A DNA stretch of 64,000 nucleotides from Hyphomicrobiales bacterium (GCA_016185205.1 JACPOA010000018.1:59914-123913), one strand, 5' to 3'; positions 663 to 25,722 are shown, counted from the stretch's first letter. Translations and numbers: made by a program. Notes: generated from the letters alone by a model not told the origin.

Positions 663-677
663 TAGATATCGTTTGGC

Positions 678-2336: not shown

Positions 2337-2498
2337 TTGCGGCCGATAAGGAGAACGTATTCCAACCATGGCCGCTTGCTGAGGACTTGTTTTAATTGGG
2401 GTTTCGAGTAAGACGGGCGGCGCGACGGGAATCCTTCCCACGCGCTCATAAACTTGATCGCGCGAACGAGGCAATGTGAAGTGTTACAACGAACGGCC

Positions 2499-3383: not shown

Positions 3384-3441
3384 CGCAAGCATCGGAGGGT
3401 AGGGCAGGGCTTTCGGGTGGCTACCGAGTAGGCATTGCCGC

Positions 3442-3681: not shown

Positions 3682-3880
3682 GTGAACTCCTTTGACCGCA
3701 CCATGTTGCGCTATCTTTCCCGCTGGTCAACTCGATCGCAGTTCAGGTCCGGCTAACAACGCCCGAACGCTTGTCAGCCTCATTCGAATCAGCGGCAAAG
3801 GTTGTTCGCTGATTGACAATCCGATAAAACCAATGCAGGTCGGACGCGTCGGCGAAGCGACAAAAAGGGTGGCGCATAGG

Positions 3881-4297
3881 ATGACAAAGCTCCGAATTAC
3901 GGCCGGGCCATTTACCTTCGACGCGCGTTTTGAAAGCACGGCGGCGCCAAAGACCTGTGATATCTTTCGTCGTTTGTTGCCGTACGAAAACAAAATCATT
4001 CATGTTCGCTGGAGCGGCGAAGCGGTCTGGATTCCGCTTGGGGACCTCGATTTAGGGCTGCCGCTCGAAAACCACACCAGCTATCCCGCGCCTGGGCAAA
4101 TTATCGTATATCCGGGAGGACTGAGCGAGTGTGAAATCCTTTTCGCCTATGGCGCGGTGCATTTTGCCAGCAAGGTGGGTCAGCTCGCAGGCAGTCATTT
4201 CATGACGATAACGTCCAACCTCGACAAGCTACCCGAACTCGGGCGCATAGTCTTATGGCAAGGCGCACAGACGATCCGGATTGATGCTTCTAAATGA
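3881..4297 (+). CDS. DUF3830-family (cyclophilin-like) protein
   Basis: 'MTKLRITAGPFTFDARFESTAAPKTCDIFRRLLPY...HVRWSGEAVWIPLG' resembles DUF3830 proteins. The ATG at 3881 is chosen inside the longer ORF 3692-4297. Confidence 0.6.
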   Translation: MTKLRITAGPFTFDARFESTAAPKTCDIFRRLLPYENKIIHVRWSGEAVWIPLGDLDLGLPLENHTSYPAPGQIIVYPGGLSECEILFAYGAVHFASKVGQLAGSHFMTITSNLDKLPELGRIVLWQGAQTIRIDASK

Positions 4298-4327
4298 GAA
4301 ACTCGCAATCCCGTTTCTTGATCGATG

Positions 4328-5560
4328 TCATATGGGTTTAAAATTGCGCAGGAAATCGAGAAGTATGCGAACGCATATATCCGCATCCTGAAGAGAAATC
4401 GCCTCCTTTGGATTATGGCTGATCCCGCCGGCGCAACGCACGAACAGCATGCCGATGGGACAGAGCTGCGCGATCGCCATTGCGTCGTGGCCGGCTCCTG
4501 ACGGCAGCAGCCGCGTCGCAAATCCCAATTGCTTAATCGCCCGCGAAAGGGCGTCGATCATGACCGGCGAACAGGCGGTCGCCGGCGCCTCGTGTGTGGT
4601 GGAGATCGATAGCTCAACTTGCCGGTCGGCGGCAATCTTGCGGGTGGAGCGCGTGATCTCTTCAGTTGCGGCGTCTCGCTGCGTGTCTTCGGGTGACCTG
4701 ACGTCAATCGTGAACTGAACGCTGCCCGGAATGACGTTCACCGCGCTCGGAAACACCTCCATCCGGCCGACGGTCGCCACTACACCCGGCAACGAATTTG
4801 CGACGCGCTCGACGGCGAGCACCATCTCCGCCGCCGCGGTGAGCGCGTCGCGCCGAAGCCGCATGGGGACGGTGCCCGCGTGTCCTGCTTCCCCAATCAC
4901 GGCCACCGCAAGCCGTCGGATGCCGTTGATGGCTGTCACCACCCCAACCGGCAAGTTGGCGGATTCGAGGACCGGCCCCTGTTCGATATGGACTTCAATG
5001 TATGCGTGAACCTCCTCGCGCGATTTAGCGGCCCTCGCGATCGCGGCGGGATCGCCGCCAAAAGCGATCAGCGCTTTGCGCAGACTGACGCCGTCGGCAT
5101 CACATACGTCGAGGATCGCTGGGTCAAAATAGCCGGCCAAGGCCCGAGACGAAGTGAGCGTCGTCGGAAAGCGTACGCCTTCCTCATCGCCGAAGGCGAC
5201 AACCTCGATGGCGAACGGCAATGTTTCGCGGTGCTTCGACAGTTCCTCGACGGCAACGAGGCCCGCGATGACACCGAGAGCGCCGTCGTAACGGCCGGCG
5301 TCGCGTACAGTATCGATATGTGAACCTAAAAGGAGGGCCGGCGCGCCGGGTATCGCGCTCTCATAACGCCCCACCACCGTTCCAAGCGCATCGATTGAAA
5401 CCGCGAGGCCTGCCTCACGCATCCAGCCAGCGAGTATCTCGGCGGCGGCTTTGTGAGCTGCCGACAAATAGAGCCGCGTCAATTTTCCCGGCTCGTCGGA
5501 ATGACGCGCCAGCGCATCCAGGCGTTCCATAACGCGACATCCCAGATGTTCGTCGCTCAC
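4328..5560 (-). CDS. M20-family Zn amidohydrolase, allantoate amidohydrolase / N-carbamoyl-L-amino-acid hydrolase type
   Basis: AmaB/AllC-like sequence ('LLLGSHIDTVRDAGRYDGALGV', 'FGDEEGVRF', 'GAGHDAM'). Its GTG start overlaps the puuE stop (GTGA). Confidence 0.75.
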   Translation of the reverse strand: MSDEHLGCRVMERLDALARHSDEPGKLTRLYLSAAHKAAAEILAGWMREAGLAVSIDALGTVVGRYESAIPGAPALLLGSHIDTVRDAGRYDGALGVIAGLVAVEELSKHRETLPFAIEVVAFGDEEGVRFPTTLTSSRALAGYFDPAILDVCDADGVSLRKALIAFGGDPAAIARAAKSREEVHAYIEVHIEQGPVLESANLPVGVVTAINGIRRLAVAVIGEAGHAGTVPMRLRRDALTAAAEMVLAVERVANSLPGVVATVGRMEVFPSAVNVIPGSVQFTIDVRSPEDTQRDAATEEITRSTRKIAADRQVELSISTTHEAPATACSPVMIDALSRAIKQLGFATRLLPSGAGHDAMAIAQLCPIGMLFVRCAGGISHNPKEAISLQDADICVRILLDFLRNFKPI

Positions 5561-6486
5561 GCGCCACCCTTCCGGGCTGGATGTTCAGCCTGCCAATGGC
5601 GCGCAATCTCTACGCGGCGCGCAATCCAAACATTCTCGTGGCCGAGCACATAGTCGAGGAAGCGCGCCAGCGCTGCCGCCCGACCGGGGCGGCCGACGAG
5701 CCGGCAATGCATGCCGACAGACATCATGCGCGGGCGTTCGGCACCTTCCGCATAGAGGACGTCGAAGGAATCTTTCAGATAGTTGAAGAATTGATCGCCG
5801 CAATTGAAGCCCTGTGCGCTGGCGAAGCGCATGTCGTTGGCATCGAGAGAGTACGGAATAATGAGATGGAATCCGCATGGGCCTTCCACCCAATAAGGCA
5901 AATCGTCGGCATAGCTGTCGGAGGAGTAGAGGAATTCGCCGTGTTCCATGACGAGATCGAGCGTGTGCTCCGACGACCGCCCGGTGTACCAGCCATGCGG
6001 GTGTTCGCCGGTCACTTCGGTATGAATGCGGATCGCCTCCAGCATGTGATGGCGTTCCGCATCGCGAGAAAAATCCTTATAATCGATCCATTTCAGTCCA
6101 TGGCTGGCAATTTCCCAGCCAGCCTCCTTCATGGCGGCAACTTGTTCGGGGCCGCGCATGAGCGCCGTTGCGACGCCATAAACGGTGAGCGGGCAATGGC
6201 GCTCGGTAAACATTCTCCAAATCCGCCAAAACCCTGCTCGCGCACCATATTCGTAGATCGATTCCATGCTCATATGACGCTGCCCCAACCATGGCTGCGC
6301 GCTGATGATCTCGGACAGAAATGCCTCTGACGCAGGATCGCCATGGAGAATGCAATTCTCTCCGCCCTCTTCGTAATTGAGCACGAATTGGACCGCGATC
6401 CGCGCCTCGCCCGGCCAGCGCGCGTGCGGCGGTGTTCGTCCATAGCCTTTCATGTCGCGGGGATAGGAGATCGTGGGGGGCATCAA
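5557..6486 (-). CDS. puuE: Allantoinase PuuE (polysaccharide-deacetylase family)
   Basis: 'YPRDMKGYGRTPPHARWPGEARIAVQFVLNYEEGGE' is the typical PuuE N-terminus. About 309 aa. Confidence 0.85.
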   Translation of the reverse strand: MMPPTISYPRDMKGYGRTPPHARWPGEARIAVQFVLNYEEGGENCILHGDPASEAFLSEIISAQPWLGQRHMSMESIYEYGARAGFWRIWRMFTERHCPLTVYGVATALMRGPEQVAAMKEAGWEIASHGLKWIDYKDFSRDAERHHMLEAIRIHTEVTGEHPHGWYTGRSSEHTLDLVMEHGEFLYSSDSYADDLPYWVEGPCGFHLIIPYSLDANDMRFASAQGFNCGDQFFNYLKDSFDVLYAEGAERPRMMSVGMHCRLVGRPGRAAALARFLDYVLGHENVWIARRVEIARHWQAEHPARKGGA

Positions 6487-6734
6487 TCGACTCCATTCAG
6501 GACGTCAGCAGATCACACCATCAGAAGCGCCACATAATTCAAAATTGAATCCTCTCCCCAACTCATGCAGTAACTAATCGTTCTGCGCCGCCGCATCGTG
6601 CCTTCGTCGGCAAGATGTATACAAGATTTCCAGGAAACCGGAAGCAATGCGTCGAGAAGCGCGACTGACACCTTAAATTTGAGCTACCGGGAGGCGCGAT
6701 TCTCGTCTACAAACGGTGCAGGCATGGAGGCCGT

Positions 6735-7265
6735 ATGAGGCCCGCCCGGAGACCCGGTCTGGAACTGGTCAATTCGGCAGACAGGAGTGAGTTCATCGCA
6801 CTGTTGGGCGGTGTCTTCGAGAATACTCCCTGGATTGCCGAAGCTGTCCTTGCGTGCCGGCCATTTCGAAGCATCGAAGAGTTGCATCGTGCGATGATGC
6901 AGTGCGTGCACGATGCACCGCCTTCTAGGCAACTCGCGCTGATCCGTACCCATCCTGAGCTTGCGGGCCGGGAGGCGGCCGCGGGTGTCTTGACATCGGA
7001 CTCAACGAGCGAACAAGATCGGCTCGGCTTTTTGGCATTGACCCGCAGCGAACTCGAAGAGATCTCCGAACTTAATCGCCGCTACCGCGATAAATTCGGT
7101 TTCCCCTGCATTGTCGCGCTGCGCCAGCATGAAACGCGAGAAAGCGTCATAGCAGAGATGACACGACGTATCGGCAATGGTGCCGGGACTGAAATCGCGA
7201 ATGCATTACAGCAGATTGGCCATATCACGCGCGGTCGGCTTGCTAAAATCATGGGCGGGACTTGA
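6735..7265 (+). CDS. uraD: 2-oxo-4-hydroxy-4-carboxy-5-ureidoimidazoline (OHCU) decarboxylase
   Basis: 'FIALLGGVFENTPWIAE...ALIRTHPELAG...LNRRYRDKFGFPCIVALR' are OHCU decarboxylase hallmarks. Confidence 0.85.
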   Translation: MRPARRPGLELVNSADRSEFIALLGGVFENTPWIAEAVLACRPFRSIEELHRAMMQCVHDAPPSRQLALIRTHPELAGREAAAGVLTSDSTSEQDRLGFLALTRSELEEISELNRRYRDKFGFPCIVALRQHETRESVIAEMTRRIGNGAGTEIANALQQIGHITRGRLAKIMGGT

Positions 7266-7266
7266 G

Positions 7267-7620
7267 ATGGGCAGGCTTTCGACCCACGTTCTCGACACGT
7301 CATGCGGACAGCCCGCCGTCGGAATGAAGATCGATCTATTTCGAATGGAAAACACGGGTTGGCAACGCCTCAAAACCGTTCTGACCGATACTGACGGGCG
7401 GGTGAGCGAACCGCTGCTGGCCGATGCCGATCTCGTCGCGGGCCGCTACCGGCTCGATTTCCACGTCGGCGCTTATTTCCGCGCGATGGGGGTCACTTTG
7501 CCCAATCCGTCATTCCTGGAAGAAGTGCCGATCCAGATCGGCATCGCCGATCCAAGCTTGCATTACCACGTGCCGTTACTTTGCTCGCCATGGAGCTATG
7601 CGACGTATCGGGGAAGTTGA
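7267..7620 (+). CDS. uraH: 5-hydroxyisourate hydrolase (transthyretin-like)
   Basis: 'MGRLSTHVLDT..G.PA.GM...' and the C-terminal 'YHVPLLCSPWSYATYRGS' signature. The start lies 1 nt after the uraD stop. Confidence 0.9.
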   Translation: MGRLSTHVLDTSCGQPAVGMKIDLFRMENTGWQRLKTVLTDTDGRVSEPLLADADLVAGRYRLDFHVGAYFRAMGVTLPNPSFLEEVPIQIGIADPSLHYHVPLLCSPWSYATYRGS

Positions 7621-7798
7621 AACGTGACCGTACACCCTACGGACCTGTTTTCGAGGCGGCACCTGATACCGACCTGACACTGTTGCTTGTGTTCTGTTGT
7701 GTCTTGCTTGCGGGCCATGACACGCTTAGCAATGAGGCAGCTGGGGACCTATTCCTCAAAGTAAATGCTAATCGCTATCAACAAGCCGGGGGGCTTCT

Positions 7799-9160
7799 AT
7801 GGCTAATCCTATTCATCCTGTCGACGAGCGCTTGCCGCTCACCCAACTTCTTCCACTCGGACTGCAGCATGTGCTCGTCATGTACGCGGGCGCCGTTGCG
7901 GTACCACTCATCATCGGACGTGCTCTAAAGCTGCCGCCGGAACAGATCGCAATTCTCGTCAATGCCGATCTGTTCGCCTGCGGCATCGTCACGCTCATAC
8001 AGTCGATCGGCATCGGGCCATTCGGAATTCGTCTGCCGATCATGATGGGCGTGACCTTTGCCTCCGTGGCGCCGATGCTGGCCATGGCCGGCAACCCCGC
8101 GCTCGGACTTGGCGGCATCTTTGGCTCGGTGATCGCCGCTGGTATTTTCGGCCTCATCGTTGCGCCATTCATGAGCGCAATGCTGCGCTTTTTCCCGCCG
8201 GTCGTCACCGGAACGATCATTGCCGTGATTGGAATTTCGTTGATGCGCATTGGCATCAACTGGGCGGCGGGGGCGGCGGCACCAAATCTTCCCGGCTATG
8301 GCGATCCGATCAACCTGCTCATCGCCGGCTTTGTGCTGATCGTCATTCTGCTCATCACGAAATTTGCCAAAGGCTTTGTCTCTAATATCGCGGTGCTGCT
8401 GGGCATCATCATCGGTTTCATCGTGGCGTGGCTGATCGGCAAAGTCAGTTTCACAGCGTTCAACAACGCCCCCTGGCTGGACATCATATATCCCTTCCAG
8501 CTCGCCAAACCGACGTTCGAGGTCTTTTCGATAATCACGATGTGTCTGGTCATGCTCGTGGTCATGGTCGAATCGACGGGTATGTTCATTGCGGTCGGCG
8601 AAATGACGGACCGGAAGGTAGAACAGCGCGATCTGACCCGCGGTCTATTGACCGACGGTTTGGGCACGCTCATCGGCGGCATCTTCAATACCTTCCCCTA
8701 TACCTCGTTCTCGCAGAATGTCGGACTGGTCGGCGTCACCGGCGTGAGGAGCCGCTGGGTTACCGCGGTGGGCGGGATCATCCTGTTGATTCTCGGCTTG
8801 ATTCCGAAGCTCGGCGCACTGGTCACCGCGGTTCCGCTGTTCGTTCTTGGCGGAGCGGGCATCGTCATGTTCGGGATGGTTATTGCGACCGGAATTCGTA
8901 TTCTGGCATCCGTCGATTACAAGACGAACCGCAACAACCTGTTCATCGTCGCAATCTCGATCGGATTCGGCATGATCCCTCTGGTGGCGCCAGCTTTCTT
9001 CTCGAAGCTGCCAAAGGAACTCGAGCCGCTGTTGAATTCCGGCATCGTGCTCGCCGCTGTCGCCGCCGTCTTGCTGAACGCCTATTACAACGGGGCCGGC
9101 TCAAAGAGTACGGGCAGCGCTGGAGCGGCCAGCGCGGCGAAGGCATCCGGGCACATCTGA
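7799..9160 (+). CDS. NCS2/NAT-family nucleobase:cation symporter (xanthine/urate permease type)
   Basis: About 13 TM segments. Contains the NAT signature 'SQNVGLVGVTGVRSR' (QNxGxxxxTG). Confidence 0.85.
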   Translation: MANPIHPVDERLPLTQLLPLGLQHVLVMYAGAVAVPLIIGRALKLPPEQIAILVNADLFACGIVTLIQSIGIGPFGIRLPIMMGVTFASVAPMLAMAGNPALGLGGIFGSVIAAGIFGLIVAPFMSAMLRFFPPVVTGTIIAVIGISLMRIGINWAAGAAAPNLPGYGDPINLLIAGFVLIVILLITKFAKGFVSNIAVLLGIIIGFIVAWLIGKVSFTAFNNAPWLDIIYPFQLAKPTFEVFSIITMCLVMLVVMVESTGMFIAVGEMTDRKVEQRDLTRGLLTDGLGTLIGGIFNTFPYTSFSQNVGLVGVTGVRSRWVTAVGGIILLILGLIPKLGALVTAVPLFVLGGAGIVMFGMVIATGIRILASVDYKTNRNNLFIVAISIGFGMIPLVAPAFFSKLPKELEPLLNSGIVLAAVAAVLLNAYYNGAGSKSTGSAGAASAAKASGHI

Positions 9161-9183
9161 GTACGCGCCGTTCCGAACTGCAG

Positions 9184-9221
9184 CCCGTCATGTCTTGCGT
9201 AAGCAAGGCATGACGGGTTTT
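9184..9221 (+). terminator. Rho-independent terminator after the permease
   Basis: 9-bp stem cccgtcatg (9184-9192) / catgacggg (9209-9217), followed by TTTT. Confidence 0.6.
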
Positions 9222-9282
9222 GTCAATTCGAAATTCGGAATCAAAACTGAGATTCTAACTTGGCAAGCTGCCAAGCTAAATT

Positions 9283-10482
9283 TCATTTTGCCGGCGCGCC
9301 GGCGGCGACCCAGGCAGCAAGCATCCGCCGCTCTTCCGCGGTCATTTCCGTAATATTGCCGGGCGGCATGGCGTTTGAGCGCACCGCGTTGCGCTCGATC
9401 AGCCTCGCATTGCGATGAATTGATTCATTGGTATCAAGAAGCACGCCTTTGGGGGCCGTTGCGATTGTCGCCCAGACCGACTCTTTTGCGTGGCACATGC
9501 TGCATCGGGACAGCACAATAGTTTCCACTTGTGCAAATTGCGGCGCTGGCGGTAGCGCACCGGTCGTCGTTTCGCGTGGTCCAGCGGCCGAGAGCCATGC
9601 GACAGCCGCCATGCCTCCGGCCGCAACGGCCCAGGTCCACCAAGGACTGCCTCTACCGGCGTGGCGCGAATTGAAGAAGTGACGAATGATCGGACCGAGC
9701 GCCAGGATGATGGCCACGATGACCCAATTGTACCGGGTGGCAAATAGCAGAGGATAATGGTTGCTGATCATGAGGAAGATGACCGGCAAGGTCAGATAGT
9801 TGTTGTGGACCGAGCGTTGCTTGCCGATCTTTACCCATTCGGGATTGGGTTCGCGTCCGGCGAGCAGGGCGGCGACGGTCTTCTTCTGGTTCGGAATGAT
9901 GATCGCAAAAACATTTGCCACCATCACTGTGCCAATGATGGCGCCGATTTGGTTGAACGCGCCGCGGCCGCTCAACATATGAGTAAATGCAAAAGTCAAA
10001 ATCACGATAAAGCAATAGCCAACCCAGGCGAGCGCCGCCTCATGCCTGCCTAACGGCGAACGACACAAGACCTCATAGATCAGCCAGGCGGAAATCAAGC
10101 TTCCCAAACTGAATGCGCCAGCCGCAAATGGCGTCAGATCCATCGAAGATTTGTCGATGAGGAAAAGCTCCGCATCGAGATAATAGACGACGACCAGCAA
10201 CGCAAACCCGGACAGCCACGTGGTGTACGCCTCCCACTTGAACCAAGTCAGTTCGTCAGGCATGCGCGCGGGCGCCAGCAAATATTTGACCATGTGATAG
10301 AAGCCGCCGCCATGCACCTGCCAAGCGTCGCCCTGCACGCCCGTGGGAAGTCCGTCACGATGCTTGAGACTGAGGTCGAGATGAATAAAATAAAATGAAC
10401 TGCCAATCCATGCCATGGCTGCGATCACATGCAGCCAGCGAAGCACAAGACTAAGCCATTCGGTCAATATCGGGTTAAACAT
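9283..10482 (-). CDS. puuD: Urate hydroxylase PuuD (membrane protein with C-terminal cytochrome c domain)
   Basis: 'LRWLHVIAAMAWIGSSFYFIHLD' N-terminus, multiple TM helices, C-terminal haem-c motif 'CSMCH'. Confidence 0.85.
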   Translation of the reverse strand: MFNPILTEWLSLVLRWLHVIAAMAWIGSSFYFIHLDLSLKHRDGLPTGVQGDAWQVHGGGFYHMVKYLLAPARMPDELTWFKWEAYTTWLSGFALLVVVYYLDAELFLIDKSSMDLTPFAAGAFSLGSLISAWLIYEVLCRSPLGRHEAALAWVGYCFIVILTFAFTHMLSGRGAFNQIGAIIGTVMVANVFAIIIPNQKKTVAALLAGREPNPEWVKIGKQRSVHNNYLTLPVIFLMISNHYPLLFATRYNWVIVAIILALGPIIRHFFNSRHAGRGSPWWTWAVAAGGMAAVAWLSAAGPRETTTGALPPAPQFAQVETIVLSRCSMCHAKESVWATIATAPKGVLLDTNESIHRNARLIERNAVRSNAMPPGNITEMTAEERRMLAAWVAAGAPAK

Positions 10483-10552
10483 GTGCGGGCCTGCCCGGGA
10501 GACTGCAACTGTAGCATGGCGAGCGAATGCCGAACGGAGAAGTCGCCGTGGT

Positions 10553-10737
10553 TCAGGGTATCGGCACGCAGGTATTCGGGATCGGGCACACCTTGGCGCA
10601 TTGCTGGGTGTCGTACTCGCCCTTGCATTCCTGGCACTTGTCCGGGTCGATCGCGTAGACGTCGCCCGCGACGCTGATGGCCGAGTTCGGGCATTCGAAT
10701 TCGCAGGCGCCGCACGCCGTGCACAGGGAAGGGACGA

Positions 10738-10750
<13 letters not shown>
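10553..10750 (-). CDS. Small 2x[4Fe-4S] ferredoxin (YfhL-like, 65 aa)
   Basis: '[12 protein letters not shown]' plus '[18 protein letters not shown]'. The start overlaps the upstream gene by 13 nt. Confidence 0.8.
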
Positions 10751-12831
<2,081 letters not shown>

Positions 12832-12855
12832 GTTCCCTCATCGACGCACGTGCAC

Positions 12856-14133: not shown

Positions 14134-14141
14134 CGTCACGC

Positions 14142-15647: not shown

Positions 15648-15668
15648 TGTTCTTCCTTTCGTCTTGCA

Positions 15669-16849
15669 TCACATCGCCGCCATGCGGTCCCATAGGCCGG
15701 CCGCATGTTTCTGCGCGCCGGCCGCGATCGCATCCATGTCGCCGCCGGCGAGGCGGCCGTTCTCTACCACGATGCGCCCGCCCACAATGACGTGGCGGAC
15801 GCGGCCGTTTTCCCGCACCACGACATCGCCAAGCGCGCCGGCGCTAAGCGGTTGGGGAGACGCGGCGAAGCGTTCGGCGATCAGCGCATGTCCCGTCGCC
15901 AGGCGGGGCGCCGCGCGATCGTCGCCATGAAGCTTGGCGAGGCGGAACAGCGCGACCTCTTCCTCCGCCATGTCGCCGTTCCAGCCATCGGTGCCGAGCG
16001 CGACGCGGTTTGAGGTGCGCAGGTTGTCGGCATAGCCAACACGGTTGCCTTCGTTCGAGCGTGGGTTCTGCACCAGCCAGCACGACAGCGCGTCCACCAT
16101 CTCCACCTGCGCGCGGCTCAAATGCACGCCATGCGCCAGGATCGAGCCGGGCACCAGCGCGCCCAGCGTCGCAAGCCGCTCCAGCGGGCCGTCGAAGCCG
16201 CGCGACCGCGCGTCATCGACGTCGGCTGAATCTTCCGCGACATGCACATGCAGGATGGTGGCAAGTTCGCGGGCGAGGGCGCCCGCCTCGCGTACGGTGT
16301 CGTCGGAGACGGTGAAGCTCGCGTGCAGGCCGACCATTCCGCGTATCAGTTGCGACGCAGGAACGCGGCGGCACTCGGCCAGGCCGCGCGCGGCCTCCTC
16401 ACGGCCGAAATTGCGCTCGGTCGCGCCGTAGCAAAGCAGCGCGCGCATGCCGAGCTGCTCGCAAACCTTGGCGAGGATGGCGAGCGATCCCTCGATCAGA
16501 TGCGGCGATTCGTGATGATCGATGAGCGCGGTGGTGCCGGCGAGCAGCGCGCGCGCGACATAGTCCAGAGCGGAGACGCGTAGCGTCTCGGCGTCGAGCG
16601 CACGGTCGAGCCGCCACCACACCCGCTCGAGGATTTGCACGAAATTTTCCGGCAGCGGGGAGGCTGGCGGCATGCCATAGCGTGCAAGCCCGCTGTAGAG
16701 GTGCGTATGCGCGCAAACCGCGCCGGCGGCGATCTCGCCATCGCCGCAGGCGAGCACGCGCGCGCCTTCGGGCGGCGACGCCGCAATCATCCCGTCGATC
16801 ACGGCGACGCGACGGCCGTGACGGTCGGGGCCGATCAGGAGCGGTTCGG

Positions 16850-16859
<10 letters not shown>
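15669..16859 (-). CDS. ssnA: SsnA-like amidohydrolase (chlorohydrolase/deaminase superfamily)
   Basis: 'CAHTHLYSGLAR...ILERVWWRLDRALD...LIDHHESPHLIEGSL...HVHVAED...NPRSNEGNRVGY...LGTDG' tracks E. coli SsnA as I recall it. Confidence 0.65.
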
Positions 16860-19492
<2,633 letters not shown>

Positions 19493-19507
19493 CTTGGGAT
19501 TTTCCCG

Positions 19508-20344
19508 TCAACGCTCGAGATCGCTGAATTCCTCATGCAACGACTCGATGCGCCGCAGACGCTCCTGCGCCGACGCGCCGAGCGCCAGCGCCACGCCGGA
19601 GCCGAGATAGTTCACGAGACTCATGGCAGCGACGTAGGAATCGAACAGGCGCGCCCCGCGGCTGTAACAGCGGAATACGATATGGGCCGATTTTCCGACC
19701 TTGCCGAGCGAGGAATCGCCCAGCAGGACGGTCCGCGCCTTGGCGGCGGCGGCGGCACGGAGGATTCGTCCCAGCACCGGCGGACGCCGGCGGAAGCCGA
19801 ACGCCAAAACGGCGTCACCCCGTCCCAGGTCGGAGAATTCTTCGGCCACGGTCTGGCCCGGGACCGGTAGCAGGTTCACCTGCGGGCGCACCTGCACCAG
19901 CAGCTCACGGGCGTAAAAGGCAAGCGGATAGCTGTTGCGGAATCCGACCACGGTTACGCGTTGCGCGCCGGCGAGGATTTTAACGGCGGCTTGCACATGG
20001 TCGGCAGGAATCGTCTCGATGGTACGCCTGAGGTAGGCAATGTCGTGCCCGAGATGCTCCGCCAATGTTCCGTCCAAATCCCGGGTATTTGACAGCTCGG
20101 CGAGCGGCGAGCCGTTATGATAGTGATTGCGCGCCTGCTGGCGCATTTCGTGGAAATCCGCATAGCCAAGACGGCGCACCAGCCGTGCGGCGGTCGCCTT
20201 CGACACCCCCGAGCGGGCTGCCAATTCGGTTGCGGAATAGGCCGCAAGGTCGCCCCGCATCTCAAGAATCAGCTCCGCCAGCTTCCGCTCGCCGAGCGGA
20301 AGCGCGTCATATGTCTCGCGGATTCGGTGAACCAGCGGGTCCAT
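19508..20344 (-). CDS. MurR/RpiR-family transcriptional regulator (HTH + SIS domain)
   Basis: 'LSATELAARSGVSKATAARLVRRLGYADFHEMR' HTH_6, then a SIS-like C-terminus. Confidence 0.8.
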   Translation of the reverse strand: MDPLVHRIRETYDALPLGERKLAELILEMRGDLAAYSATELAARSGVSKATAARLVRRLGYADFHEMRQQARNHYHNGSPLAELSNTRDLDGTLAEHLGHDIAYLRRTIETIPADHVQAAVKILAGAQRVTVVGFRNSYPLAFYARELLVQVRPQVNLLPVPGQTVAEEFSDLGRGDAVLAFGFRRRPPVLGRILRAAAAAKARTVLLGDSSLGKVGKSAHIVFRCYSRGARLFDSYVAAMSLVNYLGSGVALALGASAQERLRRIESLHEEFSDLER

Positions 20345-20353
20345 GGCAGCGAA

Positions 20354-20407
20354 GAAACATATGTTTCATAGATATGCAATAAGGAAATATACGTTTCATT
20401 CCTTATT
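20354..20407. promoter_or_regulatory. Candidate operator pair in the rpiR / M20-ygeW-arcC divergent region
   Basis: Perfect 14-bp palindrome GAAACATATGTTTC (20354-20367). Related GAAATATACGTTTC (20384-20397). 9-bp arms AATAAGGAA (20378-20386) / TTCCTTATT (20399-20407). AT-rich island in GC-rich DNA. Confidence 0.45.
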
Positions 20408-20468
20408 GACCCGCCATTTTGGCTCTGATTTCGTGCGCGCGCTTATTCGGCTTTTACTGGAGAAATTC

Positions 20469-22010
20469 ATGTCCAACCTCGATGCGCGCGTGGCCGAACT
20501 GGCCGCCAAATATCACCCCCTGGCGGTCGAAATACTGAAGGAGGCCATCCGCATCCCCGCCGACTATGTGGACCGTCCGGCCGACCAGGGCGGCGACCCT
20601 CGCTGCGGCACCTCCAACCACGAGTTCCCGCGGCTCGACTACCTGCGCAAGAAGATCATCGAGATCAAGGCGGTGCGCCGCCCCGAGGATGTCGACTTCG
20701 ACGCGTTCGGCAATCTCGTCTGGATGGTCGCCGATCCGGACGACGGCATCGCGTCCGACCAGAAGAAGGTTATCTACCTCGACGGCCACACCGATACGGT
20801 GAAGCCGCTGCGGCCGGTGTGGCTCGAGAAGACCAATGGCGGCGTTGACGTCTACAACGGCTTGATCGATCGGACCAAGATCGACAAGGCCATGCTCGAA
20901 AAGGAACTTGGCTGGGTGCCGCCGGAGTCCGAGTGGGAGCATCTGCTGTTTGGACGCGGCTCGGCCGACCAGTTGGGCGGCGTCATCGCCCAGATCGTCG
21001 CCTCGAAGATTCTTCTGGAACTGGCGCCGGAAGGTGCCCTGAAGGGCGTCATCGTGCGCTCCTACGCCACCGTGTGCGAGGAGGACAATGACGGCGCCGG
21101 CCCGATGTATGTCATGCGCAACGTCTTGCCGGGCGCCAAGGCCGAGCTCATTCCCGATGTCGTCATCCTCACCGACTCGACCGGCGACGCCAAGAAGGGC
21201 GCGCTCGGCATCTACCGCGGGCAGCGCGGCCGCATGCAGATCGAGGTGACGGTGACGGGCCGTTCCTCCCACGGCTCGATGCCGTGGGAAGGCCTCAACC
21301 CGCTCGAATTCGGCGGCGCCATCATCAAGGAGGCGGCCGAGAAATACGAGAAGCGCGAGGGCTTCCTCGACAACGCCTTCCTGGGTCACGGCACGCGCAC
21401 GGCGTCCTGGTCGAATCTCGATACGCCGAGCGACTGTGCGGTGCCGGCCCGTTTCGTGTTCCGCTTCGACCGTCGCCTCACTATCGGCGAGACGCCCGAG
21501 CAGGCGGTGGCCGATGTCGAGGGGCTTTCCTCGGTCGCCAAGGCACGTCAGGCGGGCCTCAAGGTCGAGGTCGGCGTGCCCACATACGGGGAGGCCAGCT
21601 GGAAAGGCTTCGTCCTCAACAATCCGCAGATCTATCTGGGCTGGGTCACGCCGGAGGAGCACCCCGCGATCCAGGCGGCGGTGACGGCCTACAAGGGCGT
21701 CGTCAGCCCGCACGTGAACGGCAAGAGCGGCACCGGCGGCGGCATCCCGAAGGAGCCGCGCGTCGATCGCTGGATCTTCTCGACCGACGGCGTGGGTTAC
21801 CCGGTGTCGAAGGACGACACCAGCATTCCGGTCGGCAAGGCCAAGCAGTGGGTGGTTTCCGGCGCTTACAAGCATCCGGCCATGTTCGGCTTCGCGCCCG
21901 GCATCGAGCAGAATACGCACAAGATCGCCGAGTGCGTCGATGTTCGCGAGGTGCGGCACGCCATCGCGTTCCTGGCGCGCTTCCCCAGCGTGTTCGCCGG
22001 CAGGGTCTGA
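20469..22010 (+). CDS. M20-family metallohydrolase in the YgeY position (513 aa)
   Basis: 'LDGHTDTV', 'FGRGSADQLGG', 'CEEDNDGAG'. GGAG lies 8 nt upstream of the ATG at 20469. Confidence 0.7.
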   Translation: MSNLDARVAELAAKYHPLAVEILKEAIRIPADYVDRPADQGGDPRCGTSNHEFPRLDYLRKKIIEIKAVRRPEDVDFDAFGNLVWMVADPDDGIASDQKKVIYLDGHTDTVKPLRPVWLEKTNGGVDVYNGLIDRTKIDKAMLEKELGWVPPESEWEHLLFGRGSADQLGGVIAQIVASKILLELAPEGALKGVIVRSYATVCEEDNDGAGPMYVMRNVLPGAKAELIPDVVILTDSTGDAKKGALGIYRGQRGRMQIEVTVTGRSSHGSMPWEGLNPLEFGGAIIKEAAEKYEKREGFLDNAFLGHGTRTASWSNLDTPSDCAVPARFVFRFDRRLTIGETPEQAVADVEGLSSVAKARQAGLKVEVGVPTYGEASWKGFVLNNPQIYLGWVTPEEHPAIQAAVTAYKGVVSPHVNGKSGTGGGIPKEPRVDRWIFSTDGVGYPVSKDDTSIPVGKAKQWVVSGAYKHPAMFGFAPGIEQNTHKIAECVDVREVRHAIAFLARFPSVFAGRV

Positions 22011-22043
22011 CCAGAACCTCACCCATCACGCAAGGAGCCATTC

Positions 22044-23237
22044 ATGCCCAGCGCCGCCATCGAGAAGCAGCTCGCCGCGTTTAACGCCCTGAAGACCGAT
22101 CTCTTCCACAAGGACTTCCTGCTGACGTGGGAGCATTCGACCGACGAAATCAAGGCCATCCTGACGTTGGCCGAGGCGCTCAAGCTCCTGCATCAGGAGG
22201 GTGTCTCGTGCCGCGCCTTCGACTCAGGGCTCGCCATCTCGATCTTCCGCGACAACTCCACCCGCACCCGCTTCTCCTTCGCCGCCGCGGCGAGCGCGCT
22301 CGGCTTCACGCTGTCGGATCTGGACGAGGAGAAGAGCCAGATTGCGCACGGCGAGACCGTGCGCGAGACCGCCAACATGATCAGCTTTCTCGCTGAGGTC
22401 ATCGGCATCCGCGACGACATGTTCCTGGGCGAGGGCAACAAATACATGCGCGAGGTCGGCGACGCCCTCACCGAAGGCAAGCAGCAAGGCGTGCTGCACC
22501 GCCGGCCCAGCATCATCAATCTTCAGTGCGACATCGATCACCCGACGCAATCGCTCGCTGACCTGGCCTGGCTGAAGAAGCACTTCGGCGGCATCGAGAA
22601 CCTGCGCGGCAAGAAACTCGCCATGACCTGGGCCTACAGCCCGAGCTACGGCAAGCCGCTCTCGGTCCCGCAGGGCGTCATCGGCCTCATGACCCGTTTC
22701 GGCATGGAGGTGAGCCTGGCGCACCCGGAAGGCTACGGGCTCATACCGGAGGTGATCGAGGTCGCCCGCAAGAACGCGGTGCAGAGCGGCGGCAAGTTCG
22801 AGGTGGTGAACAGTATGGAGCAGGCCTTCCAGGGCGCCCACATCGTCTATCCCAAGTCCTGGGCGCCGTATCACGTCATGCAGCGCCGCACCGAGCTGCT
22901 CAAGACGTCCGACAAGGACGGGCTCAAGGCGCTGGAGAAGGAGTGCCTGGCCAACAACGCCCGTTTCTCGAGTTGGGAGTGCGACCGGGCCAAGATGAAC
23001 CTGACCCACGACCGTTCTGCGCTCTACATGCACTGCCTGCCGGCCGACATCACAGACGTGAGCTGCAAGGCCGGCGAGGTCAGCGCCGAGGTCTTCGAGC
23101 AGTACCGCATTCCGACCTACCACGAAGCGAGCTACAAGCCGTTTGTCATTAGCGCCCTCATGTTCCTCACGCGTCTGCGGGATCCGGGCGCGAAGTTGGA
23201 GCAGATCATCCGCCGCGCCAAAGGCCTGAGTATCTGA
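22044..23237 (+). CDS. ygeW: YgeW-type (knotted) carbamoyltransferase
   Basis: 'KDFLLTWE', 'SIFRDNSTRTRFS', 'KSQIAHGETVRETANMISF', 'NLQCDIDHPTQSLADLAWL', 'MTWAYSPSYGKPLSVPQG', 'LYMHCLPAD'. Near-collinear with E. coli YgeW from memory. Confidence 0.85.
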   Translation: MPSAAIEKQLAAFNALKTDLFHKDFLLTWEHSTDEIKAILTLAEALKLLHQEGVSCRAFDSGLAISIFRDNSTRTRFSFAAAASALGFTLSDLDEEKSQIAHGETVRETANMISFLAEVIGIRDDMFLGEGNKYMREVGDALTEGKQQGVLHRRPSIINLQCDIDHPTQSLADLAWLKKHFGGIENLRGKKLAMTWAYSPSYGKPLSVPQGVIGLMTRFGMEVSLAHPEGYGLIPEVIEVARKNAVQSGGKFEVVNSMEQAFQGAHIVYPKSWAPYHVMQRRTELLKTSDKDGLKALEKECLANNARFSSWECDRAKMNLTHDRSALYMHCLPADITDVSCKAGEVSAEVFEQYRIPTYHEASYKPFVISALMFLTRLRDPGAKLEQIIRRAKGLSI

Positions 23238-23271
23238 CCATCGGCGTGGTCTCCCCTCGTCGGAGGCTGTC

Positions 23272-24216
23272 ATGAAGAAGACGGTGATCGTAGCCCTGGG
23301 TGGCAACCTGTTCGTCTCGGACGAGACGCATCAGTCGGTGCCCGACCAGTACCGCGCCGCGGAGCGGGCCTGCGCACATATCGTGCCGCTGCTGCGCGAT
23401 CCGGAGCTGCGTCTCGTCGTGACGCACGGGAACGGCCCGCAGGTCGGGTTCATCCTGCGCCGCTCCGAGCTGGCCGCCCTGGAGCTGCACCAGGTGCCGC
23501 TCGACGCCTGCGTTGCCGACACGCAGGGCGCGCTCGGCTACCAGATTGAGCGCGCGCTGCGCAACGAGCTTCGGCGCCACCGCCTGGCCAGGTCGCCCGC
23601 CGCCGTAGTGACACTCGTACTGGTCGACCGGGACGATCCCGCCTTCAGCCATCCCACCAAGCCCATCGGCGCCTTCCTCTCGAAGGAGCGCGCCGAGGAA
23701 CACCGGCAGAAGGACGGCTGGGACGTGGTGGAGGACGCCGGGCGCGGCTGGCGGCGTGTCGTGGCCTCTCCCACGCCTAAGGCCATCCTCGACCTCGAAG
23801 CGGTCCGCAGCCTGCTCGATGCCGGCTTTGTTGTTGTTGCCGCCGGCGGCGGCGGCATCGCCGTGGTCGAGGACCCGAGCGGCGACATCTTTGGCGCGTC
23901 CGCCGTCGTGGACAAGGACCTCGCCTCGAGCCTGCTCGCACGCCAGCTCGGCGCCGATGTGCTCGTCATCACGACGGACGTGGAAAAGGTCTGCATCGAC
24001 TATGGCAAGCCGGGGCAAAAGGCCCTCGACGCGATGACGGTGGCGGAGGCGAAGCGGTACATGGCGGAAGGGCACTTCAAGCCCGGCAGCATGCTGCCCA
24101 AGGTGCAGGCGATCATCGAGTTCCTGGGAGGCGGCGGCAAGCAGGCCATCATCACCGATCCCGAGCACATCGCCGCGGCGCTGGAAGGCAGCGGGGGCAC
24201 ACGCGTCACGCCGTGA
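23272..24216 (+). CDS. arcC: Carbamate kinase
   Basis: 'KKTVIVALGGN', 'VVTHGNGPQVG', 'VVAAGGGGI' are carbamate kinase signatures. 314 aa. Confidence 0.85.
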   Translation: MKKTVIVALGGNLFVSDETHQSVPDQYRAAERACAHIVPLLRDPELRLVVTHGNGPQVGFILRRSELAALELHQVPLDACVADTQGALGYQIERALRNELRRHRLARSPAAVVTLVLVDRDDPAFSHPTKPIGAFLSKERAEEHRQKDGWDVVEDAGRGWRRVVASPTPKAILDLEAVRSLLDAGFVVVAAGGGGIAVVEDPSGDIFGASAVVDKDLASSLLARQLGADVLVITTDVEKVCIDYGKPGQKALDAMTVAEAKRYMAEGHFKPGSMLPKVQAIIEFLGGGGKQAIITDPEHIAAALEGSGGTRVTP

Positions 24217-24255
24217 TCGGGCGAGCTGGGCACGGCGGCTGTTTGTTCGCCGGCG

Positions 24256-25659
24256 TTAGATTGTTTCCGCGTAGGCCGCACCGAATGGCTTGCGTGGCAG
24301 ATAACTGCCGGCGCCGCGCTCGGCACGCAAATCGCCGTCCGCCCAGACATGGCGTCCGCGTGCGAGCGTGTGGGTCACCACGCCCTTGATCTGCATTCCC
24401 TCCCACACCGAGAAGTCGGTGTTCTGATGCTGGGTTGCCGCGGAGAGGGTTTTCGTCCGCTCGGGATCGAGCACGATCAGGTCGGCGTCGGCGCCGACCT
24501 CCAGCGAACCCTTGCGCGGCCACAGATTGAACGCCTTGGCCGCATTCGCCGAGGTGAGGGCGACGAACCGCTCCGGCGTCAGGCGTCCGCTGTTGACTCC
24601 GAGATGCCACAGCACGTGCAGCCGCTCCTCGATCCCGCCGCAACCATTGGGAATCTTGGTGAAGTCGTTAAGGCCGAGGCGCTTCTGCGCTTTGGTGAAA
24701 CAGCAGTGATCGGTACCCGTGGTGCTGAGCGTGCCGGCCTCCACCGCCCGCCAGATCGCCTCCTGATGGCCCTTCGGCCGGTAGGGTGGGCTCATCACAT
24801 GGCCGGCGGCGATGTCGAAATTTTCCGCGCGGTAGACCGTGTCGTCGATGGCGAGAAATCCCGGCAAGGTCTCGCCGATGACTTTCACGCCGCGCCGCCT
24901 GGCTTGCCCGATGGCATCCGCGGCCTCAGCCGCCGAGACGTGCACCACGTAGAGCGGCACGTCGACAATCTCCGCCATGGTGATGGCGCGCAGCGTCGCC
25001 TCGCCCTCGCATTGCGAGGGGCGCGACAGCGCATGACCGAGCGGCGAGGTGATCCCGTCGGCCAACACTTTCTGCTGCAGATAGGCGATCAGTTCTCCGT
25101 TCTCGGCGTGCACCTGCACCAGCGCTCCGAGCTCGCGGCAGCGGCGAAAGCCGGCGATGAGGTCCTCGTCGGGCAGCATCAGGCGGCCCTTGTAGGCGAG
25201 AAAGAACTTGAAGCTGGCGATGCCGTGGTCGTTGACCAGGCTCGCCATCGCCGTGGAGAAAGCTTCGCTCCACCACGACACGGTCATGTGGAAGCCGTAG
25301 TCCACCGTCGACTTGGCCGCCCGGTCCTGCCAGATCGTCAGCGCCTCCAATGGCGATTGCCCCGGTTCGGGGCCGACGAAATCGAGGATCGTGGTGGTCC
25401 CGCCCGCCGCCGCCGCCGCCGTGCCGGTGAAGAAATCATCCGCCATGACGGTTCCCATCATCGGCAATTGCATGTGGGTGTGCGGGTCGATCCCGCCGGG
25501 CATCACGTAGCAGCCGCCGGCATCGATGACCTCAGTGCCGGCCGGCGCCGCGATCGCGTCGCCGATGGCGACGATGCGCCCGTCATGGGTGAGCATGTCG
25601 GCGCGCCGACGCCCCCGTTCCGTCACGACCGTGCCGCCTCGGATCAAATTCATCGTCAT
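24256..25659 (-). CDS. Dihydropyrimidinase / D-hydantoinase (HyuA-type cyclic amidohydrolase)
   Basis: 'VMPGGIDPHTHMQLP', 'GGTTTILDF', 'FKFFLAYKG', 'VHAENGE', 'GTDHC'. 467 aa. Confidence 0.85.
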   Translation of the reverse strand: MTMNLIRGGTVVTERGRRRADMLTHDGRIVAIGDAIAAPAGTEVIDAGGCYVMPGGIDPHTHMQLPMMGTVMADDFFTGTAAAAAGGTTTILDFVGPEPGQSPLEALTIWQDRAAKSTVDYGFHMTVSWWSEAFSTAMASLVNDHGIASFKFFLAYKGRLMLPDEDLIAGFRRCRELGALVQVHAENGELIAYLQQKVLADGITSPLGHALSRPSQCEGEATLRAITMAEIVDVPLYVVHVSAAEAADAIGQARRRGVKVIGETLPGFLAIDDTVYRAENFDIAAGHVMSPPYRPKGHQEAIWRAVEAGTLSTTGTDHCCFTKAQKRLGLNDFTKIPNGCGGIEERLHVLWHLGVNSGRLTPERFVALTSANAAKAFNLWPRKGSLEVGADADLIVLDPERTKTLSAATQHQNTDFSVWEGMQIKGVVTHTLARGRHVWADGDLRAERGAGSYLPRKPFGAAYAETI

Positions 25660-25722
25660 TGCCCACTCGGCCCCGAAACGTTCCTACGCCGGATACGTAC
25701 TCACCCTTAGTCACTGAATACT

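Follow-up and report, generated by a model that had tools for sequence, protein, structure and literature searches.

Can one bacterial locus carry two separate routes for the breakdown of urate, and what would the second of them be? The question is raised by a stretch of 64,000 nucleotides from a Hyphomicrobiales bacterium (GCA_016185205.1, JACPOA010000018.1:59914-123913), referred to here as the window and numbered from its first letter, in which an oxidative and a reductive set of purine genes lie side by side between positions 3881 and 25659. A first-pass annotation of this DNA had proposed that the two sets are adjacent and that the second holds homologues of seven members of the ygeW...xdhD island of E. 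coli. BLASTP comparisons and profile models bore out both proposals, the correspondence to the urate island extending to the individual steps; every gene was found where that annotation had placed it, and the translations contain each of the peptide motifs that it had quoted. We favour, with moderate confidence, the reading of the region as a single locus for urate that combines one importer with two routes. The second of these would be a version, proper to environmental bacteria, of the reductive 2,8-dioxopurine ("yanthine") pathway; it is probably driven by ferredoxin, and in it a pair of pyridoxal 5'-phosphate (PLP) enzymes, PLP2 and PLP1, would stand in for YgeX. Every step of the published pathway except that of YgeX has a homologue within one 15-kb block, and chance is excluded as an explanation because the synteny is conserved in 80 related loci.

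Homology of the second gene set to the urate island of E. coli

The reductive pathway was reconstituted in 2025 and leads from urate through 2,8-dioxopurine, ureidomethyl-hydantoin, 2,3-diureidopropionate and 2,3-diaminopropionate to pyruvate (PMC12507026; bioRxiv 10.1101/2025.04.24.650524), so that the initial statement that most steps were biochemically undefined is outdated. In E. coli the reduction of urate falls to XdhD-YgfM, in C. sporogenes to XdhAC/DOPDH, which has no FAD and depends on selenium. The next reduction, that of 2,8-dioxopurine, is the work of YgfK, for which C. difficile has UacX; ring opening by SsnA then yields ureidomethyl-hydantoin, HyuA converts it into 2,3-diureidopropionate, one ureido group is removed by YgeW (with carbamate kinase yielding ATP) or by the hydrolase UacY, YgeY takes the other, and YgeX turns 2,3-diaminopropionate into pyruvate (PMC12507026; bioRxiv 10.1101/2025.04.24.650524).

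Genes in the window were called with the help of a high GC content at third codon positions (GC3), which was used to tell real genes from antisense open reading frames (ORFs), and the start codons of PLP1 and of the YgeY-like M20 protein are those of the public gene call. Families were assigned with the curated cut-offs of NCBIfam and with Pfam, and identities refer to BLASTP comparisons with E. coli K-12 proteins. Set against the E. coli ygeW...xdhD cluster (PMC12507026), the locus encodes relatives of YgeW (66% identity), YqeA (44%), HyuA (40%), SsnA (35%), YgeY (33%), the permease UacT (56%) and the N- and C-terminal domains of YgfK (41% and 33%), and the predicted order of reactions is the same. 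The window differs from that cluster in lacking YgeX, YgfM, YqeB, YqeC and MocA, in a Mo enzyme that is not an XdhD orthologue, in a YgfK without the Fer4_20 and Pyr_redox_2 domains, in the addition of two PLP enzymes and a small ferredoxin, and in an RpiR regulator where E. coli has the sigma54 activator YgeV. A tblastn search of the whole window with E. coli proteins detected no ygeX, yqeB, yqeC, mocA/ygfJ, ygfM, xdhB or guaD, in agreement with the original remark that ygeX, yqeB, yqeC, ygfJ and ygfM are lacking.

YgeW, a knotted carbamoyltransferase of 397 aa (22044-23237, plus strand), passed both equivalog models, with 662 bits for NF005538 (cut-off 453) and 618 bits for TIGR03316 (cut-off 500), and is well separated from the ornithine, putrescine and aspartate carbamoyltransferases, the next family (AOTC) scoring 129 bits; the clustering with ordinary ornithine or putrescine enzymes that the first-pass annotation had named as the test of its own label was not found. 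The YqeA-like carbamate kinase (23272-24216, plus strand) passed the subfamily model NF009007 (399 bits, cut-off 266), and the HyuA-like D-hydantoinase/dihydropyrimidinase (24256-25659, minus strand), of the D-specific type, passed TIGR02033 (583 bits, cut-off 393). The YgeY-like M20 protein, a putative ureido-group hydrolase of 513 aa with an N-terminal insertion (20469-22010, plus strand), is similar to YgeY over residues 197-526 only, two thirds of the protein, and scored 182 bits with NF009555, under the cut-off of 321. For the SsnA-like, YgeY-like and YgfK-like proteins the family in the name is clearly the best match in each case, although all three score below the curated cut-offs.

The Pyd pathway (PydA, PydB, PydC) resembles the block in its logic of reduction, ring hydrolysis and decarbamoylation, in a hydantoinase of the dihydropyrimidinase family and in the M20 or nitrilase carbamoylases used by relatives of the window locus, but it has no place for a Mo hydroxylase, SsnA, YgeW, a urate permease or PLP enzymes. 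The xanthinase (Rabinowitz) pathway was rejected, as its downstream decarboxylase and formimino enzymes are absent and the cluster fits the reductive pathway instead.

Distribution and gene order in related loci

Relatives were collected from one genome per species with the SsnA-like protein as seed, which gave 177 relatives, of which 80 loci (designated by L and a number) were kept and analysed by tblastn and ORF clustering; counts of gene order next to SsnA use the 74 informative loci. Bacteria of several phyla from soil, peat, groundwater, sediment and the sea thus carry the variant, with 177 species-level genomes as a minimum. The 80 loci stem from Alpha- and Betaproteobacteria, Myxococcota, Acidobacteriota and others: metagenome-assembled genomes (MAGs) of Xanthobacteraceae and Hyphomicrobiales (up to 90% identity); species of Rhodoplanes; Astrobacterium; Rhodospirillales and Acetobacteraceae; Propionivibrio, Ramlibacter and Rhodoferax; Anaeromyxobacter and many Myxococcota; and Acidobacteriota, Eisenbacteria and Planctomycetota. 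The view that the island is known from enterics and gut anaerobes is thus true of the literature but not of nature, given these environmental genomes, and its assignment here to an aerobe is not established, since some carriers, such as Propionivibrio, Rhodoplanes and Anaeromyxobacter, are strict or facultative anaerobes.

Among the titles and abstracts searched for pathway intermediates, gene names, or ssnA together with soil, none describes an environmental or aerobic variant. The text of Liu et al. mentions neither Proteobacteria nor environmental habitats (bioRxiv 10.1101/2025.04.24.650524), and the commentary by Percudani describes the pathway as confined to obligate or facultative anaerobes (PMC12990295). 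The rule of Liu et al. requires at least four of seven proteins over identity cut-offs to the C. sporogenes proteins, with 80% coverage (bioRxiv 10.1101/2025.04.24.650524); under it YgfK (for its coverage), YgeY and YgeX would probably fall short.

The core order shared by the loci is Mo enzyme, SsnA, PLP2 and PLP1, followed in part of them by the truncated YgfK (YgfK-N) and the ferredoxin. In the window, the genes rpiR-Mo-ssnA-PLP2-PLP1-ygfKN-fdx are separated by gaps of at most 24 nt or overlap, a spacing that suggests one tight operon on the minus strand, the first gene of which (19508-20344) encodes an RpiR/MurR-family regulator with weak RpiR-family matches and an HTH_6 domain in the public gene call. 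Fourteen loci contain an additional gene for an FAD subunit (PF00941), mostly beside a second Mo enzyme of the conventional xanthine dehydrogenase (XDH) type. In Propionivibrio dicarboxylicus DSM 5885 (L011, 13549-15715), homologues of selenium-cofactor genes, namely an XdhC-like half of yqeB, yqeC and a TIGR03309-like half of yqeB, lie between the permease and the PLP pair, and a 954-aa YgfT/GltD-like protein is encoded at the edge of the cluster.

Two modules for ureido cleavage were found to be mutually exclusive across the survey. YgeW and/or the YgeY-like M20 protein occur in 19 loci and a UacY-like amidohydrolase of PF07969, the Pfam family of C. difficile UacY, in another 19, with zero overlap, and the YgeY-like M20 protein was found with YgeW and never with the UacY-like protein. 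In 16 of the 19 UacY-like loci an M20 carbamoylase is also present, 31-38% identical to the allantoate amidohydrolase of the window, and some loci of Myxococcota and Planctomycetota have a nitrilase-type carbamoylase in its place. The same alternation of YgeW/YqeA and UacY was described by Li et al. between E. coli and C. difficile (PMC12507026).

The oxidative set and the permease

All five enzymes of the route from urate to allantoate passed their curated NCBIfam or Pfam models. PuuD, the membrane cytochrome-c urate hydroxylase (9283-10482, minus strand), scored 442 bits with PF06181 and carries a C-terminal CSMCH haem motif; 5-hydroxyisourate hydrolase UraH (7267-7620, plus strand) scored 132 bits with TIGR02962 (cut-off 87), OHCU decarboxylase UraD (6735-7265, plus strand) 169 bits with TIGR03164 (cut-off 96), allantoinase PuuE (5557-6486, minus strand) 541 bits with TIGR03212 (cut-off 425), and the M20 allantoate amidohydrolase (4328-5560, minus strand) 576 bits with NF006775 (cut-off 479). 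As enzymes these are no different from those of PuuD-type oxidative uricolysis elsewhere, the later enzymes of which, for the ureidoglycine and ureidoglycolate steps, are not encoded in the window; what is odd is that puuD begins only 70 nt after the end of the reductive operon. At the edge of this set, a gene for a cyclophilin-like DUF3830 protein of 138 aa (3881-4297, plus strand; PF12903, 113 bits; no NCBIfam match) is convergent with the allantoate amidohydrolase gene, 30 nt away.

A single permease gene, located between the oxidative and the reductive genes (7799-9160, plus strand), serves the whole locus. It encodes a putative urate/xanthine:H+ symporter of the NCS2 family (TIGR03173, 535 bits, cut-off 414) whose identity to E. 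coli XanQ is 29%, well below that to UacT. The presence of the oxidative set together with an NCS2 permease, proposed at the outset, is therefore upheld, and the permease can be specified as UacT-like. UacT-like permeases are also present in the clusters of L003, L004, L006, L007, L011, L012 and L022, and oxidative urate genes (PuuD, UraD/UraH or PuuE) were detected within 10 kb in L006, L017, L029, L032 and L038, so that the proposed co-conservation of the reductive set with purine genes was found in relatives.

The Mo enzyme and the SsnA-like protein

The molybdoenzyme had been called XdhD-like, which is imprecise. This protein of 880 aa (16850-19492, minus strand), a fusion of a 2x[2Fe-2S] part and a Mo-cofactor hydroxylase and a putative urate 6-dehydroxylase, scored 904 bits with TIGR03311 (cut-off 830) and 236 bits with the XdhD model TIGR03313 (cut-off 1102), and is 30% identical to E. 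coli XdhA and 26% to XdhD. It falls in the XdhAC/TIGR03311 class, with the architecture of the FAD-less XdhAC/DOPDH, and is not an XdhD orthologue. The enzyme itself has no FAD domain, and tblastn detected no FAD subunit for it in the window. Among solved structures it comes nearest to a selenium-dependent nicotinate dehydrogenase, that of E. barkeri (3HRD; 267+87+112 bits summed over its subunits), with 327 bits for the D. gigas aldehyde oxidoreductase and 248 bits for bovine XDH; Liu et al. likewise report nicotinate dehydrogenase as nearest to DOPDH (bioRxiv 10.1101/2025.04.24.650524). An alignment made by hand through MOP and nicotinate dehydrogenase motifs places a leucine at bovine F1009 and a threonine, as in DOPDH, at A1078, which is suggestive only. 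Regarding Glu606 of XdhD, for which Li et al. suggest a test, MAFFT placed position 606 in a poorly conserved linker where the column is uninterpretable.

The stop of the Mo enzyme gene and the start of ssnA overlap by 10 nt, and the Mo enzyme gene lies immediately upstream of SsnA in 53 of the 74 informative loci. The pairing of a Mo hydroxylase with SsnA that marks a reductive cluster is thus found here, in the TIGR03311 match, the fused Fe-S and Mo parts and the overlap with ssnA, and activity on urate is predicted. We regard it as improbable that the protein is instead a genuine, possibly selenium-dependent, xanthine dehydrogenase that converts xanthine or hypoxanthine into urate and so feeds PuuD. 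The NCBIfam title of TIGR03311 is "selenium-dependent xanthine dehydrogenase", tblastn found no other XDH in the window, and puuD follows the operon closely on the same strand; on the other hand, the gene is tied to ssnA by overlap and by conserved order, the loci with an FAD-subunit gene mostly carry it beside a second, conventional enzyme, the conversion of urate into 2,8-dioxopurine and back is the only one carried out by XdhAC of C. sporogenes, which also lacks FAD (Liu et al.), and the nearest solved structure is not an XDH.

The SsnA-like protein, a putative ring-opening hydrolase with the HTH metal motif (15669-16859, minus strand), has 396 aa, compared with 442 in E. coli, and aligns with E. 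coli SsnA over its full length. It scored 273 bits with NF005540, under the cut-offs of 444 and 455 (NF005540; IPR017700/TIGR03314), the next-best family reaching 83 bits. SsnA of the environmental lineage lies below the TIGR03314 cut-off, and for that reason is likely to have been missed by the IPR017700 survey of Li et al.

A truncated YgfK, a small ferredoxin and the supply of electrons

The YgfK-like Fe-S protein of the first reading proved to be a shortened form of 697 aa (YgfK-N; 10738-12831, minus strand), a putative 2,8-dioxopurine reductase: the homologous terminal parts are there, the FAD/NAD(P)H module is not. It matches YgfK at residues 5-395 (41%) and 898-991 (33%) and consists of an N-terminal putative FMN/substrate domain and a C-terminal 2x[4Fe-4S] domain, whereas exactly the Fer4_20 (453-532) and Pyr_redox_2 (552-839) domains of E. 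coli YgfK, a module of about 500 aa, are missing. With TIGR03315 it scored 397 bits against a cut-off of 835, the YgfK family still being clearly the best match. No relatives of YgfK-N were found in the PDB, and ORF cluster 3, to which it belongs, holds 34 sequences including that of the window.

The gene list given at first named genes that are all present, and overlooked one, for a 2x[4Fe-4S] ferredoxin of 65 aa (10553-10750, minus strand), which was recognised as an ORF with two motifs of the CxxCxxCxxxCP type. Its first 13 nt, ATG included, coincide with the 3' end of the YgfK-N gene, stop codon included. Its best NCBIfam match is the YfhL-type NF033683 (70.6 bits, under the cut-off of 86). 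The ferredoxin is kept in 15 related loci with 58-89% identity, directly after YgfK-N in the six closest. Since the Mo enzyme and YgfK-N both lack an NAD(P)H/FAD module, we propose that this ferredoxin at the end of the operon delivers the four electrons to the two enzymes, and the environmental reductive route is probably ferredoxin-driven.

In three alphaproteobacterial MAGs, a pyruvate:ferredoxin oxidoreductase (PFOR) of 1200 aa and a dihydroorotate-dehydrogenase-like (UacX-like) reductase of PF01180 are encoded right after SsnA (L014, 11211-16253; L016, 11218-16241; and also L012). In L014 and L016 the ferredoxin gene lies between SsnA and the PFOR, on the opposite strand. This arrangement suggests that in the PFOR loci pyruvate, the end product of the pathway, supplies the reduced ferredoxin for both reductions.

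The clostridial variant (XdhAC, with UacX and UacY in C. difficile) offers the nearest parallel in these respects, with an FAD-less fused Fe-S/Mo enzyme for which use of NAD(P)H is not expected (the clostridial XdhAC did not use it; Liu et al., bioRxiv 10.1101/2025.04.24.650524), a reductase without an NAD(P)H module and a suspected ferredoxin-type donor; loci related to the window also use UacY-like (PF07969) and UacX-like (PF01180) alternatives. It differs in that the reductase of the window is a truncated YgfK and not a PydA/UacX homologue, that YgeX is replaced, that no selenium-cofactor genes lie near the window locus, and that its hosts are gut Bacillota, whereas the variant described here belongs to environmental Proteobacteria, Myxococcota and Acidobacteriota.

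The PLP2-PLP1 pair

The extra PLP enzymes that the first-pass annotation had mentioned are both real members of PF00291; that they form the most conserved part of the variant had escaped it. PLP2 (14142-15647, minus strand), a cysteine-synthase-like (beta-substituted-alanine synthase) enzyme of fold type II with 501 aa and helical extensions at both ends, is the most conserved protein of the block, with at least 90% identity in close relatives and 61-66% in Acidobacteriota. It is encoded within 10 kb in 50 of the 80 loci and directly downstream of SsnA in 38 of the 74 informative ones. PLP1 (12856-14133, minus strand), a fold-type II enzyme of 425 aa with an N-terminal CxxC...C region and similarity to threonine synthase and serine racemase, is present in 45 of the 80 loci and immediately follows PLP2 in 42 of the 45 that hold both.

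The AlphaFold2 model of PLP2 (pLDDT 80) shows extra N- and C-terminal helices, and its best Foldseek matches are O-acetylserine sulfhydrylases, beta-cyanoalanine synthase and cystathionine beta-synthase (target TM-score about 0.75, 20-27% identity); neither the Schiff-base lysine (AHK) nor the STGN carboxylate loop varies. For PLP1 (pLDDT 88) the best matches were threonine synthase, serine racemase and threonine deaminase, and structures of YgeX were not among the top 50 matches of either model. At 50% clustering PLP2 forms a compact family well away from CysK; 380 clusters, including many fragments, reach E <= 1e-30, and more distant relatives share 30-47% identity. The protein is very abundant in metagenomes: each of the 8000 candidates that were scored proved significant, and identity was 77% or more throughout the top 120, whose annotation is only "cysteine synthase" or "PLP-dependent enzyme".

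Like YgeX, a 2,3-diaminopropionate ammonia-lyase, both proteins are fold-type II PLP enzymes of PF00291, and they stand at the only unfilled step of the pathway; the match of PLP1 to YgeX is only 24% identity (E = 2e-5), and there are two proteins where E. coli has one. The main argument for the pair filling the YgeX step comes from the survey, in which YgeX homologues are absent from 79 of the 80 loci and the only locus with one, L014 (42% identity, divergent from ygfKN), lacks the pair. The PLP2/PLP1 pair would therefore probably take the place of YgeX. As the hydantoinase is D-specific and UacY resembles D-aminoacylases (Li et al., PMC12507026), one PLP protein may deal with stereochemistry; it is speculation on our part that this is the racemase-like PLP1, with PLP2 in charge of beta-elimination or beta-replacement.

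Proposed use of urate by the two routes

Once imported, urate could enter either route. In route A, PuuD, UraH, UraD, PuuE and the allantoate amidohydrolase would act in this order, as in standard oxidative uricolysis. In route B, the FAD-less Fe-S/Mo enzyme would strip the 6-oxo group from urate to give 2,8-dioxopurine, the C4=C5 bond of which would be reduced by YgfK-N; the short SsnA would then open the pyrimidine ring, yielding ureidomethyl-hydantoin, and the D-hydantoinase would open the hydantoin to 2,3-diureidopropionate. YgeW is expected to phosphorolyse one ureido group, with carbamate kinase turning the carbamoyl phosphate into ATP, and the YgeY-like M20 protein to hydrolyse the other, leaving 2,3-diaminopropionate, while PLP2/PLP1, for the missing YgeX, would convert diaminopropionate or its ureido precursor into pyruvate and ammonia. 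On the simplest view, route A would be used when an oxidant is available and route B under O2 limitation. Homology, domain architecture, synteny and co-occurrence are what the sequences show; from them we infer all catalytic activities, the source of the electrons, what the PLP pair does and when either route is used.

A regulator for route B is predicted from the divergent promoter region between rpiR and the M20-ygeW-arcC operon, where two palindromic boxes, GAAACATATGTTTC and GAAATATACGTTTC, form a putative RpiR operator (20354-20397). The palindrome gave 6 matches where chance would give 0.37, and the two exact boxes are both in this region; L002-L007, L013 and L036 have it at the corresponding place, with both types of ureido module; the regulator is kept at this position in Alphaproteobacteria (cluster 7, 17 sequences with that of the window). 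A repressor of the RpiR type, acting on these two operators, may thus control the reductive route.

Points against the proposed reading

Several results count against the reading of the locus as one system with two routes, or against parts of it, and the first concern the link between the routes. None of the oxidative promoters contains the RpiR operator motif, which is confined to 20354-20397. GC3 is 0.60-0.74 in the oxidative genes and the left flank, 0.76-0.90 in the reductive genes and 0.70-0.87 in most of the remaining window; between 1-10500 and 10500-25700, the atypical part is thus the oxidative set and not the reductive one. Oxidative neighbours occur in only five of the 80 loci, so that the juxtaposition recurs but is not the rule. 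Given these three observations, co-regulation of the two routes is not supported. A search for FNR/anaerobox control found no TTGAT-N4-ATCAA box near the operon, and a k-mer comparison of all intergenic regions, made for an operator common to oxidative and reductive promoters, returned only chance-level 9-13-mers.

The two sets could then be autonomous modules whose neighbourhood is incidental, with neither shared regulation nor physiological coupling, an explanation that is compatible with the reading we favour. It gains from the points just given and from the nearest relative, L002, where genes for an FAD subunit and another Mo enzyme occupy the place that puuD has in the window. It has to account, however, for the recurrence of the adjacency in L006, L017, L029, L032 and L038, the last four with a local arrangement different from that of the window, for the one UacT gene that serves the whole locus, and for the position of puuD after the ferredoxin gene, with no terminator-like site predicted between 10483 and 10553. 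We consider mere coincidence doubtful, though worth keeping in mind.

As for the PLP pair, PLP2 (501 aa) and PLP1 (about 425 aa) also form a stand-alone two-gene operon in Pleomorphomonas and on a JGI metagenomic contig, with no SsnA or Mo enzyme gene within 10 kb. The pair is therefore not dedicated to the reductive cluster and is a portable module, and the need for two proteins where E. coli manages with one is unexplained. In addition, a gene for an Fe-S type L-serine dehydratase lies amid the pathway genes of L010 (2223-3629), L013 (76-1083) and L021 (3794-5206), all with the PLP pair. Some versions of the pathway might therefore pass through serine, and this argues against a simple equivalence of the pair with YgeX. 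These occurrences, together with that in Siculibacillus and the greater closeness of PLP2 to beta-replacement enzymes than to lyases in Foldseek, would suit a different job for the pair, for example racemisation and beta-replacement to serine or a beta-substituted alanine, or the detoxification of diaminopropionate or albizziin. We hold such a job to be the less likely outcome, because the two genes lie at the centre of the operon and are conserved in different phyla, nothing else is a candidate for the last step, and pair and YgeX are anti-correlated in L014.

The hosts of the stand-alone pair are Pleomorphomonas oryzae, a related MAG and the JGI contig, where its neighbours are a threonine-aldolase-like gene, DeoR, Dak1/Dak2 and TIM. 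Some 8.5-10 kb downstream of the pair in Siculibacillus lacustris are an M20 gene and a gene for a 680-aa Fer4 protein, the latter cut off where the sequence examined ends. With Siculibacillus included, the pair occupies 8485-11278 of L083, 8488-11281 of L084, 8492-11278 of L085 and 8491-11284 of L086.

The identity of the substrate is a further point: since the SsnA-, YgeY- and YgfK-like proteins are below their curated cut-offs, it could differ from urate. The selenium-cofactor genes yqeB and yqeC, which accompanied every cluster in the strain library of Liu et al. (bioRxiv 10.1101/2025.04.24.650524), were not found in the 64-kb window and are adjacent, among the 80 loci, only in Propionivibrio L011. 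The block might apply the same chemistry to another oxidised N-heterocycle, such as another oxopurine, a pterin, or 5-substituted hydantoins or dihydropyrimidines. The low scores would fit this, as would a hydantoinase that matches the general dihydropyrimidinase model, the absence of YgeX from the window and a PLP pair that moves to unrelated contexts. It is nevertheless unlikely in our judgement, with YgeW passing its equivalog models at 66% identity, UacT-like permeases in several clusters, oxidative urate genes beside the cluster in five relatives, and a step-for-step match in which the alternations of YgeW with UacY and of YgfK with UacX-type proteins mirror those of known urate clusters.

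Genomic surroundings of the locus

The flanks of the locus show no link to purines, with genes for a glycosyltransferase, a short-chain dehydrogenase/reductase and a hydrolase on the left and for a TetR regulator and acyl-CoA dehydrogenases on the right. The TetR gene (25950-26654), directly beyond the hydantoinase, is divergent from two tandem paralogues of a 394-aa acyl-CoA dehydrogenase (26809-29223), probably an unrelated catabolic unit. Farther off in the window are housekeeping genes, including those for MoaA, RpiA, DAHP synthase and NadE, and because of them the window is taken to be chromosomal; a plasmid origin was rejected, as megablast of 10700-25700 against PLSDB gave no match and the remaining window is chromosomal housekeeping DNA. 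The exact proteins of the window are also encoded on a contig assembled from run SRR12113392.

Two FNR/FixK-like boxes, TTGATCTAGATCAA (perfect) and TTGATAAGGATGAA (one mismatch), were detected 77 bp apart at 33593-33683, in a non-coding gap upstream of a UPF0261-family gene, and another perfect box at 1398-1411. Three tandem genes for DctP-type solute-binding proteins of TRAP (tripartite ATP-independent periplasmic) transporters lie beside a convergent DctQ/DctM pair at 45560-51405, and the protein encoded at 51651-53183 joins a signalling domain of methyl-accepting chemotaxis proteins to a PilZ domain, which binds c-di-GMP, at its C terminus.

Meaning of the environmental variant

The chemistry of the pathway has been known since 2025; what is new is the environmental lineage, with its truncated YgfK, its operon ferredoxin and association with PFOR, its PLP pair, the strict alternation of two ureido modules and the physical link to PuuD-type uricolysis. 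We put forward only tentatively, as a possibility, that these features define a widespread and undescribed environmental lineage, ferredoxin-driven, wired to PFOR in some members and with its last step carried out by a two-protein PLP system instead of YgeX. A role for PLP2 would correct many annotations and could reveal a new enzyme for the degradation of diaminopropionate or albizziin, and cultured carriers (Rhodoplanes spp., Astrobacterium, Propionivibrio) give experimental access to the variant.

The Percudani commentary names three open questions: what donates electrons to XdhAC, which stereochemistry applies, and how old the pathway is, where it leans to a recent adaptation to the gut rather than an ancient origin (PMC12990295). 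For the donor, which it describes as unknown, the operon ferredoxin, with a PFOR beside it in three loci, is a concrete candidate. The occurrence of a homologous cluster in at least 177 environmental species-level genomes of several phyla bears directly on the question of age. If the tentative reading of a ferredoxin-driven environmental lineage is true, the "gut" pathway would be an old environmental invention rather than a recent intestinal adaptation, and some soil Alphaproteobacteria would have hard-wired the reductive to the oxidative route, allowing the use of urate across oxygen regimes.

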